A DNA stretch of 64,000 nucleotides from a phage (GCA_013585095.1 GCA_013585095.1_3039.1), one strand, 5' to 3'. Shown: positions 51,968 to 59,433, counted from the first letter of the stretch. Program-made: numbers and translations. Notes: generated from the sequence alone by a model not told the origin.

Positions 51968-52236
51968 TGTTTGTCGTTCACACTATTTATGAAAATGAAG
52001 GTAATACTACACGTGATTACGGTCACGTAAATCAATTTTTTAGATGCAATCCAGAATTCCGATCTCAAAAAGACGAACGAATTTTTAAAAAATGCGTAGA
52101 GCAAGGTTTCATTTACGTCAAGCACTGGATGCAAGGAAATAAAGTTAGAACCACGTACCACAGGTCTTTGACTGAGCTTAATGATGAATTGATTTATAAT
52201 AGAGCTGTAAACCAAACTCTAAAGGATGAACAATGA
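51967..52236 (+). CDS. hypothetical protein
   Basis: 89 aa ATG overlapping stop. Confidence 0.4.
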   Translation: MFVVHTIYENEGNTTRDYGHVNQFFRCNPEFRSQKDERIFKKCVEQGFIYVKHWMQGNKVRTTYHRSLTELNDELIYNRAVNQTLKDEQ

Positions 52237-53696
52237 TTCTTAAAATTCTGAACGAAATAGCATCTATTGGTTCAACTAAGCAGAAGCAAGCAATTCTTGA
52301 AAAGAACAAAGATAATGAATTGCTTAAACGAGTATATCGTCTGACTTATTCTCGTGGGTTACAGTATTATATCAAGAAATGGCCTAAACCTGGTATTGCT
52401 ACCCAGAGTTTTGGAATGTTGACTCTTACCGATATGCTTGACTTCATTGAATTCACGTTAGCTACTCGGAAATTGACCGGAAATGCGGCAATTGAGGAAT
52501 TAACTGGATATATTACTGACGGTAAAAAAGATGATGTTGAAGTTTTGCGTCGGGTGATGATGCGAGACCTTGAATGCGGTGCTTCAGTATCTATTGCAAA
52601 CAAAGTTTGGCCAGGTTTAATTCCTGAACAACCTCAAATGCTGGCAAGTTCTTATGATGAAAAAGGCATTAATAAGAATATCAAATTTCCAGCCTTTGCC
52701 CAATTAAAAGCTGATGGAGCTCGGTGCTTTGCTGAAGTCAGAGGTGATGAATTAGATGATGTTCGTCTTTTATCACGAGCTGGTAATGAATATCTAGGAT
52801 TAGATCTTCTCAAGGAAGAGTTAATCAAAATGACTGCAGAAGCTCGCCAGATTCATCCAGAAGGTGTGTTAATTGATGGCGAATTGGTATACCATGAGCA
52901 AGTTGAAAAGGAACCAGAAGGCCTAGATTTTCTTTTTGATGCTTATCCTGAAATTAGTAAAGCTAAAGAATTCGCTGAAGTAGCTGAATCACGTACTACT
53001 TCTAATGGAATCGCTAATAAATCTTTAAAGGGAACCATTTCTGAAAAAGAAGCACAATGCATGAAGTTTCAGGTCTGGGACTATGTTCCATTAGTAGAAA
53101 TATATGGTCTTCCAGCGTTTCGTTTAAAATATGATGTACGTTTTTCTAAACTAGAACAAATGACATCAGGCTATGATAAAGTAATTTTAATTGAAAACCA
53201 AGTAGTAAATAACCTAGATGAAGCTAAGGTAATTTACAAAAAGTATATTGACCAAGGTCTTGAAGGTATTATTCTCAAAAATATCGATGGATTATGGGAA
53301 AATGCTCGTTCAAAAAATCTTTATAAATTTAAAGAAGTAATTGATGTTGATTTAAAAATTGTAGGAATTTATCCTCACCGTAAAGACCCTACTAAAGCGG
53401 GTGGATTTATTCTTGAGTCAGAGTGTGGAAAAATTAAAGTAAATGCTGGTTCAGGCTTAAAAGATAAAGCCGGTGTAAAATCGCATGAACTTGACCGTAC
53501 TCGCATTATGGAAAACCAAAATTATTATATTGGAAAAATTCTAGAGTGCGAATGCAACGGTTGGTTAAAATCTGATGGCCGCACTGATTACGTTAAATTA
53601 TTTCTTCCGATTGCGATTCGTTTACGTGAAGATAAAACTAAAGCTAATACATTCGAGGATGTATTTGGCGATTTTCATGAGGTAACTGGTTTATGA
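52233..53696 (+). CDS. 30: ATP-dependent DNA ligase
   Basis: 487 aa as in T4; adenylation motif LKADGARCF. Confidence 0.95.
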   Translation: MILKILNEIASIGSTKQKQAILEKNKDNELLKRVYRLTYSRGLQYYIKKWPKPGIATQSFGMLTLTDMLDFIEFTLATRKLTGNAAIEELTGYITDGKKDDVEVLRRVMMRDLECGASVSIANKVWPGLIPEQPQMLASSYDEKGINKNIKFPAFAQLKADGARCFAEVRGDELDDVRLLSRAGNEYLGLDLLKEELIKMTAEARQIHPEGVLIDGELVYHEQVEKEPEGLDFLFDAYPEISKAKEFAEVAESRTTSNGIANKSLKGTISEKEAQCMKFQVWDYVPLVEIYGLPAFRLKYDVRFSKLEQMTSGYDKVILIENQVVNNLDEAKVIYKKYIDQGLEGIILKNIDGLWENARSKNLYKFKEVIDVDLKIVGIYPHRKDPTKAGGFILESECGKIKVNAGSGLKDKAGVKSHELDRTRIMENQNYYIGKILECECNGWLKSDGRTDYVKLFLPIAIRLREDKTKANTFEDVFGDFHEVTGL

Positions 53697-53881
53697 AAGC
53701 TTACTTAGAAACAATTGTCATTGCTCAAAAAGAAGGTGGAGATGTTTCTACTTCTGTATCACAAGTCATTCTCGAATTTGTAGATGCATATGCTTATAAT
53801 AAATTCACAGAAACATTTGATGCTTATGAAAAAGGTCCAAAGTTTGAAATATATCGTACTCTCTTACCAATAGATTATTAA
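53693..53881 (+). CDS. hypothetical protein
   Basis: 62 aa; terminator hairpin follows. Confidence 0.4.
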   Translation: MKAYLETIVIAQKEGGDVSTSVSQVILEFVDAYAYNKFTETFDAYEKGPKFEIYRTLLPIDY

Positions 53882-53900
53882 AGGCCTTCGGGCCTTTAAT
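53881..53900 (+). terminator. UUCG-tetraloop hairpin terminator before the alt late promoter
   Basis: aaggccTTCGggcctt + taatttta. Confidence 0.5.
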
Positions 53901-53902
53901 TT

Positions 53903-53910
53903 TATAAATA
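53903..53910 (+). promoter_or_regulatory. late promoter TATAAATA upstream of alt
   Basis: tataaata about 24 nt upstream of the alt ATG; Alt is a late, virion-packaged protein. Confidence 0.55.
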
Positions 53911-53933
53911 GAATAAACACTAGAGAGGATATG

Positions 53934-56027
53934 ATGGAACTCATTACAGAATTATTTGACGAAGATACTACTCTTCCGATTACAAACTTAAATCCAAAGA
54001 AGAAAATACCACAAATTTTTTCAGTTCATGTTGATGATGCAATTGAACAACCAGGCTTTCGTTTATGTACCTATACATCTGGAGGTGATACTAATCGTGA
54101 TTTAAAGATGGGCGATAAAATGATGCATATTGTTCCTTTTACATTAACTGCTAAAGGTTCAATTGCTAAATTAAAAGGTCTTGGTCCAAGCCCGATTAAT
54201 TATATCAATTCAGTTTTTACTGTTGCAATGCAAACAATGCGTCAATATAAAATTGATGCCTGCATGCTTCGTATTCTTAAGTCTAAAACCGCCGGTCAAG
54301 CTCGACAAATTCAACTTATTGCTGATAGACTCATCCGCAGTCGTTCAGGTGGCAGATACGTCCTTCTTAAGGAACTCTGGGATTACGATAAAAAGTATGC
54401 ATATATTCTTATACATCGTAAAAATGTATCACTAGAAGACATTCCAGGAGTTCCAGAAATTAGCACCGAGCTCTTTACTAAAGTTGAATCGAAGGTCGGT
54501 GATGTTTATATCAATAAAGATAATGGAGCTCAAGTAACTAAAAATGAGGCAATTGCAGCATCTATTGCACAAGAAAATGATAAACGTTCTGACCAAGCTG
54601 TAATCGTTAAAGTTAAAATTTCCCGTAGAGCAATTGCGCAAAGTCAATCATTGGAATCTTCTAGATTTGAAAGTGAATTATTCCAGAAGTATGAATCTAC
54701 AGCAGCTAATTTTAATAAACCTGCTACCGCTCCTTTAATTCCCGAAGCAGAAGAAATGAAGCTTGGAATTAATTCATTAGCTTCTAAAACTAAGGCAGCA
54801 AAAATTATTGCCGAAGGAACTGCAGATGAACTTCACTATGACTATAAATTCTTTTCAAAAAGTGAGGTTGATGAAGTTTCAGAAAAAATTAAAGATGTAA
54901 TTCTTAATGCGATTAAAAATGAACCAACTACTTCAATAAAATGTTTAGAGAAATACGCAGCAGCTGTTAATCAACTCTTTGAAGAATATAAAGATAATTG
55001 GCTTGATAAACATAATAAAACTCGTAAAGGGCAGCCAGATGAAGTCTGGGAAGAAATGACTAAAAATTCCTGGAACGCAGCAAAAACTAAATTCCTCAAA
55101 AGAATGATTTATAGTTTTTCTGGAATTGGTGCAGGTCCAATGATTGATATTACTATTGCCCGTGATGGTTCTAAATATACTCCATCACAAAAGCGCGGCA
55201 TTAGAGAGTATTGTGGATCAGGATATACTGACATTAATAATCTTCTTTTAGGTCGTTACAATCCAGAACGATATGATGTAATGAGTGAAAAAGAAATTGA
55301 ATCTGCTATAAATAATTTAGATTCAGCTTTTGAAAATGGTGACCGCATACCGGAAGGCATTACAGTTTATCGTGCTCAAAGTATGACTGCTCCTATATAC
55401 GAAGCACTAGTTAAAAATAAAGTATTCTATTTCAGAAATTTTGTATCTACTTCTTTAACTCCTATCATTTTTGGACGTTTTGGAATTACACATGCTGGTA
55501 TTGGTCTTTTAGAACCAGAAGCTCGCAATGAATTAACAGTTGATAAAAATGAAGAAGGAATAACTATTAATCCAAGCGAAATAAGAGCGTATAAAGAAAA
55601 TCCTGAATACGTTAAAGTTCAAATAGGATGGGCAATTGATGGAGCTCATAAAGTTAATGTTGTATATCCAGGAAGTCTCGGAATAGCAACCGAAGCTGAA
55701 GTTATTCTACCACGCGGATTGATGGTCAAAGTTAATAAAATAACTGATGCTTCTAATAACGACGGAACAACATCTAATAATACAAAACTCATTCAAGCTG
55801 AAGTTATGACTACGGAAGAACTCACCGAATCCGTAATTTATGACGGTGACCGTCTAATGGAAACCGGCGAAGTAGTTGCAATGACAGGTGATATTGAAAT
55901 AGAAGACAGAGTTGACTTTGCATCATTTGTTTCATCAAATGTTAAACAAAAAGTAGAATCATCTCTTGGAATTATTGCATCTTGCATAGATATTGCAAAC
56001 ATGCCTTACAAGTTCGTTCAAGGATAA
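53934..56027 (+). CDS. alt: Alt ADP-ribosyltransferase (copy 1)
   Basis: N-terminus MELITELFDEDTTLPITNLNPKKKIPQIF matches remembered T4 Alt; R (VYRAQS), STS (FVSTSL), ExE (ATEAEVILPRG); late promoter upstream. Confidence 0.85.
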   Translation: MELITELFDEDTTLPITNLNPKKKIPQIFSVHVDDAIEQPGFRLCTYTSGGDTNRDLKMGDKMMHIVPFTLTAKGSIAKLKGLGPSPINYINSVFTVAMQTMRQYKIDACMLRILKSKTAGQARQIQLIADRLIRSRSGGRYVLLKELWDYDKKYAYILIHRKNVSLEDIPGVPEISTELFTKVESKVGDVYINKDNGAQVTKNEAIAASIAQENDKRSDQAVIVKVKISRRAIAQSQSLESSRFESELFQKYESTAANFNKPATAPLIPEAEEMKLGINSLASKTKAAKIIAEGTADELHYDYKFFSKSEVDEVSEKIKDVILNAIKNEPTTSIKCLEKYAAAVNQLFEEYKDNWLDKHNKTRKGQPDEVWEEMTKNSWNAAKTKFLKRMIYSFSGIGAGPMIDITIARDGSKYTPSQKRGIREYCGSGYTDINNLLLGRYNPERYDVMSEKEIESAINNLDSAFENGDRIPEGITVYRAQSMTAPIYEALVKNKVFYFRNFVSTSLTPIIFGRFGITHAGIGLLEPEARNELTVDKNEEGITINPSEIRAYKENPEYVKVQIGWAIDGAHKVNVVYPGSLGIATEAEVILPRGLMVKVNKITDASNNDGTTSNNTKLIQAEVMTTEELTESVIYDGDRLMETGEVVAMTGDIEIEDRVDFASFVSSNVKQKVESSLGIIASCIDIANMPYKFVQG

Positions 56028-56030
56028 ATC

Positions 56031-58088
56031 ATGGAACTTATTACAGAATTATTTGACGGCGCTTCGGCGCCGGTTGTTAACTTAAATCCTAAGCATAAAA
56101 TACCACAAATTTTTGCTATTCAAGCCGGCGAAGAAAGTGTGCTTCCTGGATTTAGATTTTGTACATACACCTCTGGCGGTGATACAAATAAAAACGTTAA
56201 GCCAGGCGACAAAATGATGCATATCGTAATGATAGGTGTCAACGAGAAATTATCGCTGGTTAAGCTTAGAAACTTGGGTGGAAATCCAATTGGCGTCATT
56301 AATGCTGTTTTTGATACTGCTCTTCAAACAATGAAACAGTATAAAATTGACGCATGCCTATTCCGCGTACTAAAAAGTAAAACAAATGGCGCTGCTCGTC
56401 AAATGCAAGTTATTGCTGACCGTTTAGTACGTACTAAAGGAGCAGGTCGATATGTTCTTTTAAAGGAAATCTGGGATTATGATAAAAAGTACGCATATAT
56501 TATGGTTTACCGTAAAAATGCCAATTTAGAAGACATTCCAGGTGTACCTCCTATTTCAACTGAGTTATTCACAAAAGTTGAATCAAAGGTTGGTGATGTT
56601 TATGTAGACGTTAAAACAGGTAATGCTGTTCCTAAAGCTGTCGCTGTTGCTGCTTCTATTGCTTTAGAAAATGATAAGCGCACTGATCAAGCTGTTATTC
56701 AGAAAACTAAAATTAGTCGTCGATTAGCAGCACAAGCTCAATATTCTACTGTCGATGCTTCACTTCAGGGTGATAGCTTCGCTGCCAAGAAATATCAAGA
56801 GTTTGAATCTAAAGTTCCGGTATATAAAGCAGAAGGACCAATGAACTCCGGGGTTATCCAGATTGGTTCAAACTTTAGCAAAGGAGCTATCGGTGGTATG
56901 AGAAGTGCTTCTCGTTTTAAATCTAACGATTATGAACTAGAAAACTTCCGAAATCATATTGCATTAGCACATGCACGTTTACGTGATCCATCTATCAAGT
57001 TGCAGAGCGATATAACATATCAAGGTTCTCAAGAATATTTAAAGAATAAAGAATTCTTTGATTATAAAACTGATAAAATTTTAAGCGATCTTGCTGACAT
57101 TAATATTTCTAATAGCTTTGATGTTATTAAGAAAATTATCAATGATTTAGTTAAAGGTTCTAAAGCTACACCAGATGAAAAGACAGCTATTATTCAATTT
57201 GTCATGAATGGCATTTATAAATTGATTAATGAATCTGCCGCTCAGGCATATGAATATGCAAGTACTGAAGTAACTCCAAAAGGATTAACTCAGGCTGAGT
57301 CTGATGTAATTGAAGATTATTGTGCAGATTCATATGTTGAAATGAACTCGTTCCTTTTGGGTAAACCAGATTCTACCCGTGAAGAATATATGGAACGAGC
57401 TATTAAACATATTGAGACTCTTGATTCTGCATTCGCTAAAGGTTCAGTTCTTCCTCCAGGAACTACACTTTACCGTGGACAAGAAGTTACCTTTAAAACT
57501 TTGCGTCATAACATTGAAAATAAAATGTTCTATTTCAAGAACTTCGTATCCACATCGCTTAAACCAAATATCTTCGGTGAGCATGGTAAAAACTATATGG
57601 CTCTAGATGATTCCGGCGCAGTATTTTCTGGCGAAGGAGAAGGTTCCGTTGATGCAGAAGATTTGATGCATATGGGTAGTCATTCTACATATGCTAATGA
57701 AGATGCTGAAACTAGCGTGGGTATGGTAATTAAAGGAGCTGAGCGAATCAAAGTTATCGTTCCAGGTCATTTATCAGGATTTCCATCAGAAGCTGAAGTT
57801 ATTCTACCGCGTGGAATTTTACTGAAGATTAATAAAGTGAGCACGTACTTTATGAAAGAAACTGCTTATAACAAGTATCTAATAGAAGGTACAATCGTTC
57901 CTCCTTCTGAACAATTAGAGGAATCGGTATATGATGGCGACCATCTAATGGAAACTGGTGAAGTTCGTCCAATGGCTGGATTTAATCAATTCCTTGTAGA
58001 AGAATCAAAAGAAGAGGAAAACGAAGTTTCTCAAATCTTGGCTTCTTTGGTTAACATCAACGGAATGTCTAAAAAGTTCAAAATGTAG
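56031..58088 (+). CDS. Alt-like ADP-ribosyltransferase paralog (copy 2)
   Basis: 685 aa; shared N- and C-termini with copy 1, divergent middle; YRGQE, FVSTSL, PSEAEVILPRG. Confidence 0.8.
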   Translation: MELITELFDGASAPVVNLNPKHKIPQIFAIQAGEESVLPGFRFCTYTSGGDTNKNVKPGDKMMHIVMIGVNEKLSLVKLRNLGGNPIGVINAVFDTALQTMKQYKIDACLFRVLKSKTNGAARQMQVIADRLVRTKGAGRYVLLKEIWDYDKKYAYIMVYRKNANLEDIPGVPPISTELFTKVESKVGDVYVDVKTGNAVPKAVAVAASIALENDKRTDQAVIQKTKISRRLAAQAQYSTVDASLQGDSFAAKKYQEFESKVPVYKAEGPMNSGVIQIGSNFSKGAIGGMRSASRFKSNDYELENFRNHIALAHARLRDPSIKLQSDITYQGSQEYLKNKEFFDYKTDKILSDLADINISNSFDVIKKIINDLVKGSKATPDEKTAIIQFVMNGIYKLINESAAQAYEYASTEVTPKGLTQAESDVIEDYCADSYVEMNSFLLGKPDSTREEYMERAIKHIETLDSAFAKGSVLPPGTTLYRGQEVTFKTLRHNIENKMFYFKNFVSTSLKPNIFGEHGKNYMALDDSGAVFSGEGEGSVDAEDLMHMGSHSTYANEDAETSVGMVIKGAERIKVIVPGHLSGFPSEAEVILPRGILLKINKVSTYFMKETAYNKYLIEGTIVPPSEQLEESVYDGDHLMETGEVRPMAGFNQFLVEESKEEENEVSQILASLVNINGMSKKFKM

Positions 58089-58142
58089 TTTACAAGTCCC
58101 TCGTGTTGTGTTATAGTAGTCTTACTGACATAACATGAGGAA
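58088..58142 (+). promoter_or_regulatory. early promoter plus 5'UTR hairpin cassette (repeat copy B)
   Basis: gtttacaagtccctcgtgttgtgttatagtagtcttactgacataacatgagga. Confidence 0.6.
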
Positions 58143-58148
58143 CACAAA

Positions 58149-58439
58149 ATGAAATCTTCTTTGCGCTTTTTAGGTCAAGAACTTGTAGTTGAAGGCGTTA
58201 TTCCTGCTGATAATGCTTTTAATGAAGCAGTTTACGATGAATTTATCAAAATTTTTGGAACAGATAAAAAGTTCGGAATTTTTCCTTCTGAAAATTTTTC
58301 AAAGCCAGAACAGACTGAAAGTATTTTCCAAGGTGTAGTAACAGGTAAATTTGAGTCAGAAGCTCCGGTAAAAATTGAGGTTTATATTGAAGACAGTTTA
58401 GTTGCTTCAGTTGCTGCTTTTATTTCATTCCGTAAATAA
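58149..58439 (+). CDS. hypothetical protein
   Basis: 96 aa; preceded by repeated promoter cassette; hairpin follows. Confidence 0.45.
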   Translation: MKSSLRFLGQELVVEGVIPADNAFNEAVYDEFIKIFGTDKKFGIFPSENFSKPEQTESIFQGVVTGKFESEAPVKIEVYIEDSLVASVAAFISFRK

Positions 58440-58445
58440 AAATAT

Positions 58446-58467
58446 GGGGACCTTTCGGTCCCCATTG
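58446..58467. terminator. terminator hairpin between convergent units (strongest for the - strand gp54 operon)
   Basis: ggggacctttcggtcccc; on the - strand followed by AUAUUUUUAUUU. Confidence 0.6.
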
Positions 58468-59433
58468 TTATATTGCTCCTAATATTTTACTTTGCGAATT
58501 GACAATTCCTGTCATAGTATTAATGTTTGAAATGCTTCCTGCAGTTCCCCCTAATCTACTGAGTCGTGAAAGCGAATTAGATAGTCCAGTAACACCTCCA
58601 CTATTTCCGAGAACGCTTTGAATACCATTTATAGCAGCAGATTCAAGCCATTCAAGCGCAGCTTGCCTATCAACTGCTCCAGCCTGCATCACTCTATACG
58701 CAAAAGTAACATCAAATGTAGTTATTTGGTTATCTCCATCATATGATAACTCAGGAGCGCTCACTGACACTGGAATGCATCCGGTGAACATCACCGCAGT
58801 ATGAGGCAATCCATTACGAGAATGAAGATTAACCTGAATATCTGCCTCGACATCTTGCGGTAAAGCGCGTAATCCAGTTACTGGGTCTTGAACGGAGTTA
58901 ACCCAGTCTTGCATTGCACGATAGTTACAAGCTTCTGAATCCATTCTAAATGAAATAACCAAAGGGTCTAATTCTCTCCCGGTTATGCGAATATTAGGAG
59001 AATTGTAGTTCCAGTCAGTTTCATAGGATAATCTATTCTCTGGCATTTTTACAGAATATATCATCAATCCAGATGAATTATATGCCATATTAAAGAAGTC
59101 AATTAAATATGTACCAACTGTAAATGAGCCCAATAAACTTTGAACTGTACGTTGACTCATGGCACCAATAAGATATTTACTAACCCCTGATTTTCTTATC
59201 AGTTTTTGTGTGCCAGCAGTAATTAGCGTGGTAATTCCCTGATTAATATCGCCTTGAGACAATCCTAACCAGTCTGAATTTAGACCCAAGTTATTATAAG
59301 AAAAGTTGCTAATTGAACTTATCAACGAAGAGCTTTTAGTTGATGGAGTTGTCGCAAAAACGCAGCTAAACATATTATTACGTTGGAAATCTGCGTTTAT
59401 TGCTTGATTATTAAATTCCTCTAAAGAATACAT
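58468..59433 (-). CDS. 54: baseplate tail-tube initiator gp54
   Basis: 321 aa; position in 27-28-29-48-54 hub block. Confidence 0.8.
   Translation of the reverse strand: MYSLEEFNNQAINADFQRNNMFSCVFATTPSTKSSSLISSISNFSYNNLGLNSDWLGLSQGDINQGITTLITAGTQKLIRKSGVSKYLIGAMSQRTVQSLLGSFTVGTYLIDFFNMAYNSSGLMIYSVKMPENRLSYETDWNYNSPNIRITGRELDPLVISFRMDSEACNYRAMQDWVNSVQDPVTGLRALPQDVEADIQVNLHSRNGLPHTAVMFTGCIPVSVSAPELSYDGDNQITTFDVTFAYRVMQAGAVDRQAALEWLESAAINGIQSVLGNSGGVTGLSNSLSRLSRLGGTAGSISNINTMTGIVNSQSKILGAI

Follow-up and report, generated by a model that had tools for sequence, protein, structure and literature searches.

Why would a T4-like phage keep two long genes side by side that resemble each other at both ends and hardly at all in between? 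The question is posed by a Tequatrovirus (T4-like) segment within a stretch of phage DNA of 64,000 nucleotides (GCA_013585095.1; the whole stretch is called the window here), in which two adjacent open reading frames (ORFs), given the working names AltA (697 amino acids, 53934..56027) and AltB (685 amino acids, 56031..58088), are related to Alt of phage T4. Alt is the textbook case of an enzyme that a phage injects along with its DNA to reprogramme its host, T4 Alt being present in about 40 copies per virion, and nearly all work on it has been done in that phage. T4 Alt (gpAlt, 682 amino acids) is a head-packaged NAD+--arginine ADP-ribosyltransferase (ART) encoded at the same locus, between alt.1/ligase and alt.-3/gp54. 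We think it likely that AltA and AltB are functional, anciently diverged Alt paralogues, which are late co-transcribed, packaged, trimmed by the prohead protease gp21 and injected as arginine-specific ARTs with differing targets. As a sequence feature the pair is ordinary and unsurprising: it is already known, is annotated in hundreds of phages and is not peculiar to this genome. The main addition of the present analysis is that the conserved ends of AltA and AltB coincide with both gp21 sites published for T4 Alt. Every feature placed below lies on the + strand unless stated otherwise.

Two functional and anciently diverged paralogues

A preliminary description of the locus, made from the sequence alone, had claimed two adjacent ORFs of ~690 amino acids with like ends and a divergent middle, and alignment of the two bears this out. 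The ORFs share one strand and are separated by a 3-nt gap (ORF A 53931/53934-56027, ORF B 56031-58088); for AltA the second ATG (53934) is the likelier start, because GAGG lies 5 nt upstream and RB32, T2 and T6 are annotated in this way. Over their full length the proteins are 40% identical (BLASTP, E = 4e-155), and sliding windows resolve this average into very different parts. Residues 1-238 agree at 53-82% (67% overall), residues ~240-415 at 17-26% with many gaps, so that they are essentially unalignable, and the ART domain at 35-49% around the catalytic motifs, followed by a conserved C-terminal block. In AltA these parts correspond to a conserved N-domain (residues 7-238, 53952..54647), which is 97-100% identical to T4 in nucleotides, and a variable central region (residues 239-412, 54648..55169); in AltB to an N-domain of alpha/beta fold with no close solved homologue (residues 7-238, 56049..56744) and a variable central region modelled as all-helical (residues 239-415, 56745..57275). 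The termini described as shared are so only in part: MELITELFD and LNPK.KIPQIF occur in both proteins, whereas the C-terminal blocks (LTESVIYDGDRLMETGEV in AltA, LEESVYDGDHLMETGEV in AltB) are similar, not identical. Membership of the Alt family, likewise proposed before, is confirmed by end-to-end matches to phrog_802 (1-696 of AltA, E = 5e-272; 1-685 of AltB, E = 2e-256) and by Pfam PF03496 (ADPrib_exo_Tox; 130.5 bits for AltA and 71.9 bits for AltB at a cut-off of 23.4); homologues of the pair carry precomputed PF26846 and PF03496 assignments.

The duplication that gave rise to the pair is ancient. Nucleotide identity between the copies reaches 70-78%, in stretches of 158 nt or less, and synonymous divergence (dS) is saturated (>1 or not computable) almost everywhere, with nonsynonymous divergence (dN) of ~0.17-0.5 in the N-domain; therefore, the ends have been kept alike by purifying selection and not by gene conversion. 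Gene conversion confined to the 5'-end was considered separately, as the first 31 nt are 94% identical, yet the 7/8 identical codons, set beside a background of 0.55, correspond to P = 0.064, and we make no such claim. Among the window, RB32, T2 and T6, where dS is ~0.1, dN/dS is as low as 0.03-0.07 for AltA and 0.02-0.05 for AltB. Hence, both genes are functional and under strong purifying selection.

Could the second copy nonetheless be an assembly duplication or a decaying pseudogene? The former had been named at the outset as a finding that would speak against a genuine pair, and for the latter there is a precedent in that T4 carries a decayed remnant of the AltB gene. According to its GenBank record, alt.-1/alt.-2 stem from the beginning of alt, duplicated long ago; translated, the alt.-1/alt.-2 stretch reads MELITELFDGASAPVV..., which is the AltB N-terminus, is frameshifted and ends after ~130 codons, directly preceding the sequence that follows AltB in the window. 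In the window, however, the AltB frame is intact at 685 amino acids and the copies are only 40% identical as proteins, and their saturated dS together with 70-78% local nucleotide identity rules out a recent duplication or an assembly artefact. With the same gene in hundreds of independent genomes and under the selection described above, we regard this explanation as refuted, its chances being next to nil.

The intact AltB gene is named alt.-2 in RB32, and T2 and T6 carry the same pair (2094 nt + 2058 nt) in the same position, the second gene being left as an unnamed 'hypothetical protein'; AltB is that gene, with no difference of substance. A megablast search with 53600-58500 retrieved 545 phage records, 357 of them with a single match over 80% or more of the query (identity mostly 95-99%), and in many of the matched records two 'Alt-like RNA polymerase ADP-ribosyltransferase' genes are annotated at the locus. 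The records retrieved by tblastn comprise ~402 with AltB at 90% identity or more, 820 in which identity stays below 60%, and one between; across ~400 records AltB is 97-100% identical, and it is present in about three quarters of Tequatrovirus records. Paralogues of alt have been listed in T4, RB49 and 44RR (Nolan et al. 2006, PMC1524935). T4 is atypical, as it is AltB-null by nature and T2 and T6 are not, and we found no functional study of AltB in the literature.

Catalytic residues and fold of the ART domain

An intact catalytic triad had been claimed for both ORFs, and inactivating changes in either copy would have counted against the pair; we found none. The ART domain of AltA (residues 413-623, 55170..55802; PF03496, E = 6.6e-38) holds R480 within VYRAQ (55371-55373), S505-T-S507 (55446-55454) and E587 and E589 (55692-55700), all at verified coordinates, and that of AltB (residues 416-622, 57276..57896; PF03496, E = 5.8e-20) holds R482 within LYRGQ (57474-57476), S507-T-S509 (57549-57557) and E587 and E589 (57789-57797). 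FVSTSL and EAEVILPRG are present in both. In an alignment of 64 relatives, mostly representatives of clusters at 50% identity, R482, S507, E587 and E589 (AltB numbering) are invariant.

The same catalytic fold and motifs are those of the C3-like and binary-toxin ARTs (C3bot, Vis, Certhrax, iota Ia, CDTa, VIP2; PF03496). Aligned to CdtA by phmmer, AltA places VYR opposite VYRR of the toxin and TEAEV opposite GEYEV. The AlphaFold2 model of AltB, for which 64 sequences were used (pLDDT 83, pTM 0.77), agrees with this, its ART domain matching Vis, C3bot, Certhrax, CDTa and VIP2 in Foldseek, with E = 3e-7 to Vis and a TM-score of 0.6-0.65 on the target. An E-x-E motif points to arginine as the modified residue, as it does in the iota/C2/VIP2 class. 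T4 itself has further ARTs, ModA and ModB, which are ART-only proteins of ~200 amino acids that have no N-domain, middle or propeptides. AltA and AltB do not match this type, being ~690 amino acids long, with N-domain, middle and predicted propeptides, and lying behind a putative late-type promoter. ModA and ModB belong, like Alt, to the R-S-E clade and to this phage group, and they too act on proteins of the host; they are, however, early products and not injected head proteins (PMC5512222, PMC2988021).

Conserved ends and their probable processing by gp21

What, then, keeps the ends of two such divergent proteins alike? Mass spectrometry of T4 heads has shown that gp21 cuts Alt at ITE-6, removing six residues (PMC5694885), and again at LTE-619, removing 63 C-terminal residues to leave a mature protein of 68.2 kDa (PMC5694885; reviewed in PMC9026906). 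Both AltA and AltB resemble T4 Alt in their four-part architecture, in the MELITE propeptide, in an LxE-SV(I)YDGD C-terminal site and in the R/S-T-S/E-x-E residues. MELITE at the N-terminus is identical in all three, with LFD following it in AltA and AltB, so that a propeptide of residues 1-6 ending at ITE-6 is predicted for AltA (53934..53951), and likewise propeptide and gp21 site for AltB (56031..56048). At the other end the site reads EELTE / SVIYDGDRLMETGEV in AltA and EQLEE / SVYDGDHLMETGEV in AltB. Predicted cleavage after L630-T-E632 of AltA (55821..55829), homologous to T4 LTE-619, would release a propeptide of 65 amino acids with an isoelectric point (pI) of 4.2 (55830..56024); cleavage after L629-E-E631 of AltB (57915..57923), predicted from column conservation at P1 and P3 and from the model, would release one of 54 amino acids with a pI of 4.6 (57924..58085). 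The mature products are predicted at ~70.1 kDa (AltA, residues 7-632) and ~69.2 kDa (AltB, residues 7-631).

The 64 relatives support these positions. At the N-terminal site P1 (E6) is Glu in 62/64 and P3 is L or I in 58/64; at the C-terminal site the corresponding counts are 63/64 and 57/64, with 25-77 residues following it. In the AltB model pLDDT drops below 50 exactly at residues 630-633, which fits an exposed cleavage linker. Since its ends match the gp21 sites and the P1 glutamates are kept in 62/64 and 63/64 relatives, AltB, too, is most likely an arginine-specific ART that is packaged in the head, processed and injected. Each protein would then consist of a 6-residue propeptide and a ~230-residue alpha/beta domain, a variable helical middle, a C3/iota-type mono-ADP-ribosyltransferase domain and an acidic C-terminal propeptide; the shared ends would be read by the assembly and processing machinery, gp21 would trim both proteins following residue 6, at (I/L)xE, and again at an LxE that lies ~55-65 residues before the C-terminus, and both would enter the host together with the DNA and there ADP-ribosylate its proteins on arginine.

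One may object that AltB could be an active ART and yet not a virion protein, acting in the producing cell or being poorly packaged, with ends that reflect folding or regulation, for instance auto-inhibition by the C-terminal tail. We found no direct evidence of AltB in virions and nothing on it in the virion-proteome literature, and the group that located the cleavage sites in T4 Alt itself raises targeting, tethering and control of activity as possible roles of the propeptides (PMC5694885). Against this stand the MELITE propeptide, which AltB has unchanged in common with the known head protein T4 Alt, the Glu kept at both cleavage positions in 62-63/64 relatives, the predicted place of AltB in the same coupled, late unit as AltA, and the A(1-180)/B(181-684) hybrid P0005 (see below), which suggests that the N-modules are interchangeable. 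To our minds, an AltB that stays out of the head is therefore rather unlikely. A phage assigned at the time to the genus Rb69virus has a packaged Alt homologue in its virion proteome (PMC6563131).

Probable late transcription and coupled translation

The preliminary description saw a late promoter before the first ORF only. Its first half stands: TATAAATA, a box of the T4 late-promoter type, lies at 53903..53910, 23 nt upstream of the AltA start, and occupies the same place in T4 and RB32. The restriction calls for a correction, as a second TATAAATA is found inside the AltA coding sequence (55307..55314, codons A-I-N-N), 724 nt upstream of AltB. It is its position that lets us infer the box at 53903-53910 to be a late promoter, since occurrence of the octamer alone lends no support, and an extra late promoter for AltB at 55307-55314 is possible. 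A GC-rich hairpin, AAGGCCTTCGGGCCTT, which follows alt.1 (53881..53898) and was read from the sequence, is also present in T4 and RB32 and is likely a terminator that insulates alt from upstream early transcription; a scan for consensus terminators did not flag it. A terminator upstream of alt is kept in 5/6 T4-like genomes (Nolan 2006, PMC1524935).

At the junction between the two genes (56020..56033) an AAGGA Shine-Dalgarno sequence in the end of AltA is followed by the TAA stop, the 3-nt spacer and the AltB ATG. Because no promoter fits into a 3-nt gap and the Shine-Dalgarno sequence of AltB lies within the end of AltA, co-transcription with coupled translation seems a reasonable reading. 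The pair would accordingly be transcribed late from TATAAATA before AltA, and AltB would be translated from the same message via its coupled start.

Divergent middles and a possible choice of targets

The preliminary description took the pattern as diversification of target specificity, with which our data are consistent. The targets of AltB probably differ from those of AltA, and it may be the divergent middle together with the ARTT-loop region that sets which host proteins become modified. ADP-ribosylation of RNA polymerase alpha at Arg265 is known for T4 Alt only (PMC2988021). Redundancy would be a counter-proposal: AltA and AltB would both modify Arg265, the second copy would serve dosage or robustness and the middle would be a loosely constrained linker. 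The catalytic motifs are indeed the same in both, and Alt is non-essential in T4, where one copy suffices. The AltB middle, however, is not drifting, as shown by 97-100% identity across ~400 records with dN/dS of 0.02-0.05, and it is recognisably kept in Dhakavirus orthologues at 48% overall identity; moreover, the loop before E-x-E is unlike between the copies (SGFPSEAE in AltB, LGIATEAE in AltA). Redundancy thus strikes us as improbable, and we favour two packaged ARTs with different targets.

What is inferred here is that the pair is transcribed late and together, that AltB is packaged and cleaved, and that the two proteins are specific for arginine and differ in their targets; several points weigh against this. 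Tripeptides of the (L/I)xE type are common, and therefore the presence of the motif is no proof of cleavage. The TATAAATA octamer is not enriched in the window (8 found, 9.6 expected by chance), and the internal copy at 55307 is common to RB32 and absent from T4 alt. Arginine specificity is deduced for both proteins from the E-x-E motif alone, and a sequence search of the PDB with AltB gave no match. In the literature we found no proteomic or biochemical data on AltB, and 'alt.-2' returned Nolan 2006 only. Finally, T4 has lost AltB without obvious cost, so the protein is dispensable, at least on laboratory hosts.

Possible recombination at the alt locus and a possible delivery module

AltA is the positional orthologue of T4 alt in its RB32/T2/T6-type allele, sharing 98% of its residues with RB32 Alt and 72% with T4 Alt. 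Compared in nucleotides with T4 alt (L001:4455-6503), it is a mosaic, with 97-100% identity over codons 1-230, ~90% over the last ~60 and 45-70% over codons ~240-600. AltA thus differs from T4 Alt in carrying another allele at residues ~240-600, its central region being mostly 16-38% identical (53% at its start, 65% at its end), whereas AltB is 41% identical to T4 Alt overall, has an unrelated middle and has no intact counterpart in T4. The AltA mosaic has the look of an effector cassette exchanged through recombination within its conserved flanks. Among Tequatrovirus records AltA forms two classes, with 90% identity or more in ~317 records and 60-80% in 211.

Exchange between AltA and AltB may be seen in a metagenomic protein (P0005, 684 amino acids, on a 65-kb Logan contig), a clean hybrid whose residues 1-180 are identical to AltA and 181-684 to AltB, with the crossover inside the ISTELFTKVESKVGDVY block common to both; it is either a natural product of unequal recombination or an assembly chimera. 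The Dhakavirus UGJNEcP4 (L005:861-7124) has three tandem Alt paralogues of 695, 681 and 707 amino acids at the same locus, with 3-nt spacers, all three with R/S-x-S/E-x-E and both (L/I)xE sites. Its first paralogue is nearest to AltA (48%, ending KFIQG) and its last to AltB (48%, ending KFKM), from which it follows that the A/B split predates that of Tequatrovirus and Dhakavirus. The alt locus therefore appears, from such comparisons, to be an expandable array. QL01 and phage 04086 show 3-4 matching places.

Together, the AltA/T4 mosaic and the A/B hybrid P0005 are evidence that the N-domain may act as a module, for which core binding, ejection or target docking are candidate roles. Foldseek comparison of the AltB N-domain model (56031-56747) with BFVD also retrieved, beyond Alt, matches at E = 1e-7 to 1e-5 (TM ~0.5, 12-18% identity) to large uncharacterised proteins from phages of Erwinia, Dickeya, Shigella and Vibrio and from an Agrobacterium phage, some annotated with Zeta-toxin, cytidine-deaminase or ParB domains. 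These weak fold matches may reflect a shared delivery module. At the level of sequence, fusions of the N-domain to non-ART effectors were sought among four proteins (P0182, P0184, P0187, P0188) that match the Alt N-domain profile weakly and have no Pfam ART match, and the idea was dropped, as three of the four candidates (P0182, P0187, P0188) hold degenerate ART-like motifs. By eye, P0182 has LYK for LYR and NSE for E-x-E, and P0187 is 1142 amino acids long; these three may be relatives of altered specificity or inactive ones. Because of their motifs there is no sequence evidence for other effector fusions, and the BFVD matches are the sole hint.

A wider scenario can be envisaged, which we offer tentatively, as one somewhat short of even chances. 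AltB would be a capsid-packaged, injected effector whose host targets, perhaps with a defence or stress protein among them, differ from those of T4 Alt; it would have escaped notice since T4, the model phage, is naturally AltB-null, and the locus would be an array of 1-3 or more delivery-module-plus-effector genes whose effector part is exchanged by recombination. The conserved N-domain and gp21-cleaved ends may then form a generic cassette for head loading and ejection, as is hinted at by the AltA allele swap, the natural A/B hybrid and the weak N-domain fold matches to Zeta-toxin, deaminase and ParB proteins. Parallels exist in the T4 internal proteins IPI-III, whose capsid targeting sequence is a short N-terminal propeptide ending in (L/I)xE and removed by gp21, and in the logic of polymorphic toxins, where a conserved delivery end joins a swappable effector part, much as in the AltA allele swap and the A/B hybrid. 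Alt proteins differ from both in adding a large N-domain and a C-terminal propeptide, and have no adjacent immunity gene. If AltB is packaged and has targets of its own, models of host takeover based on T4 lack an effector, and the alt locus would also offer a natural scaffold with which T-even heads could be loaded with foreign proteins.

Neighbouring genes

Upstream of AltA, on the same strand, lie the genes for DNA ligase gp30 (52233-53696) and alt.1 (53693-53881), and AltB is followed by alt.-3 (58149-58439), downstream of which gp54, gp48 and gp29 are found on the - strand. The start of alt.1 overlaps the ligase stop, and its product of 62 amino acids gives a full-length match to Pfam PF24647, 'Phage blade protein' (E = 2e-29). 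The alt.-3 homologue encodes 96 amino acids with DUF5498 and is preceded by a promoter-like site of the T4 early type (TTTACA-17-TATAGT, 58089-58117). T4 escapes the CmdTAC defence system by mutations that extend Alt.-3 through read-through (PMC11618068). The convergent alt.-3 and gp54 genes enclose a hairpin with a perfect 9-bp stem (ATGGGGACC-TTTC-GGTCCCCAT, 58444-58465) and a T-run on the minus strand, which is likely a bidirectional terminator.

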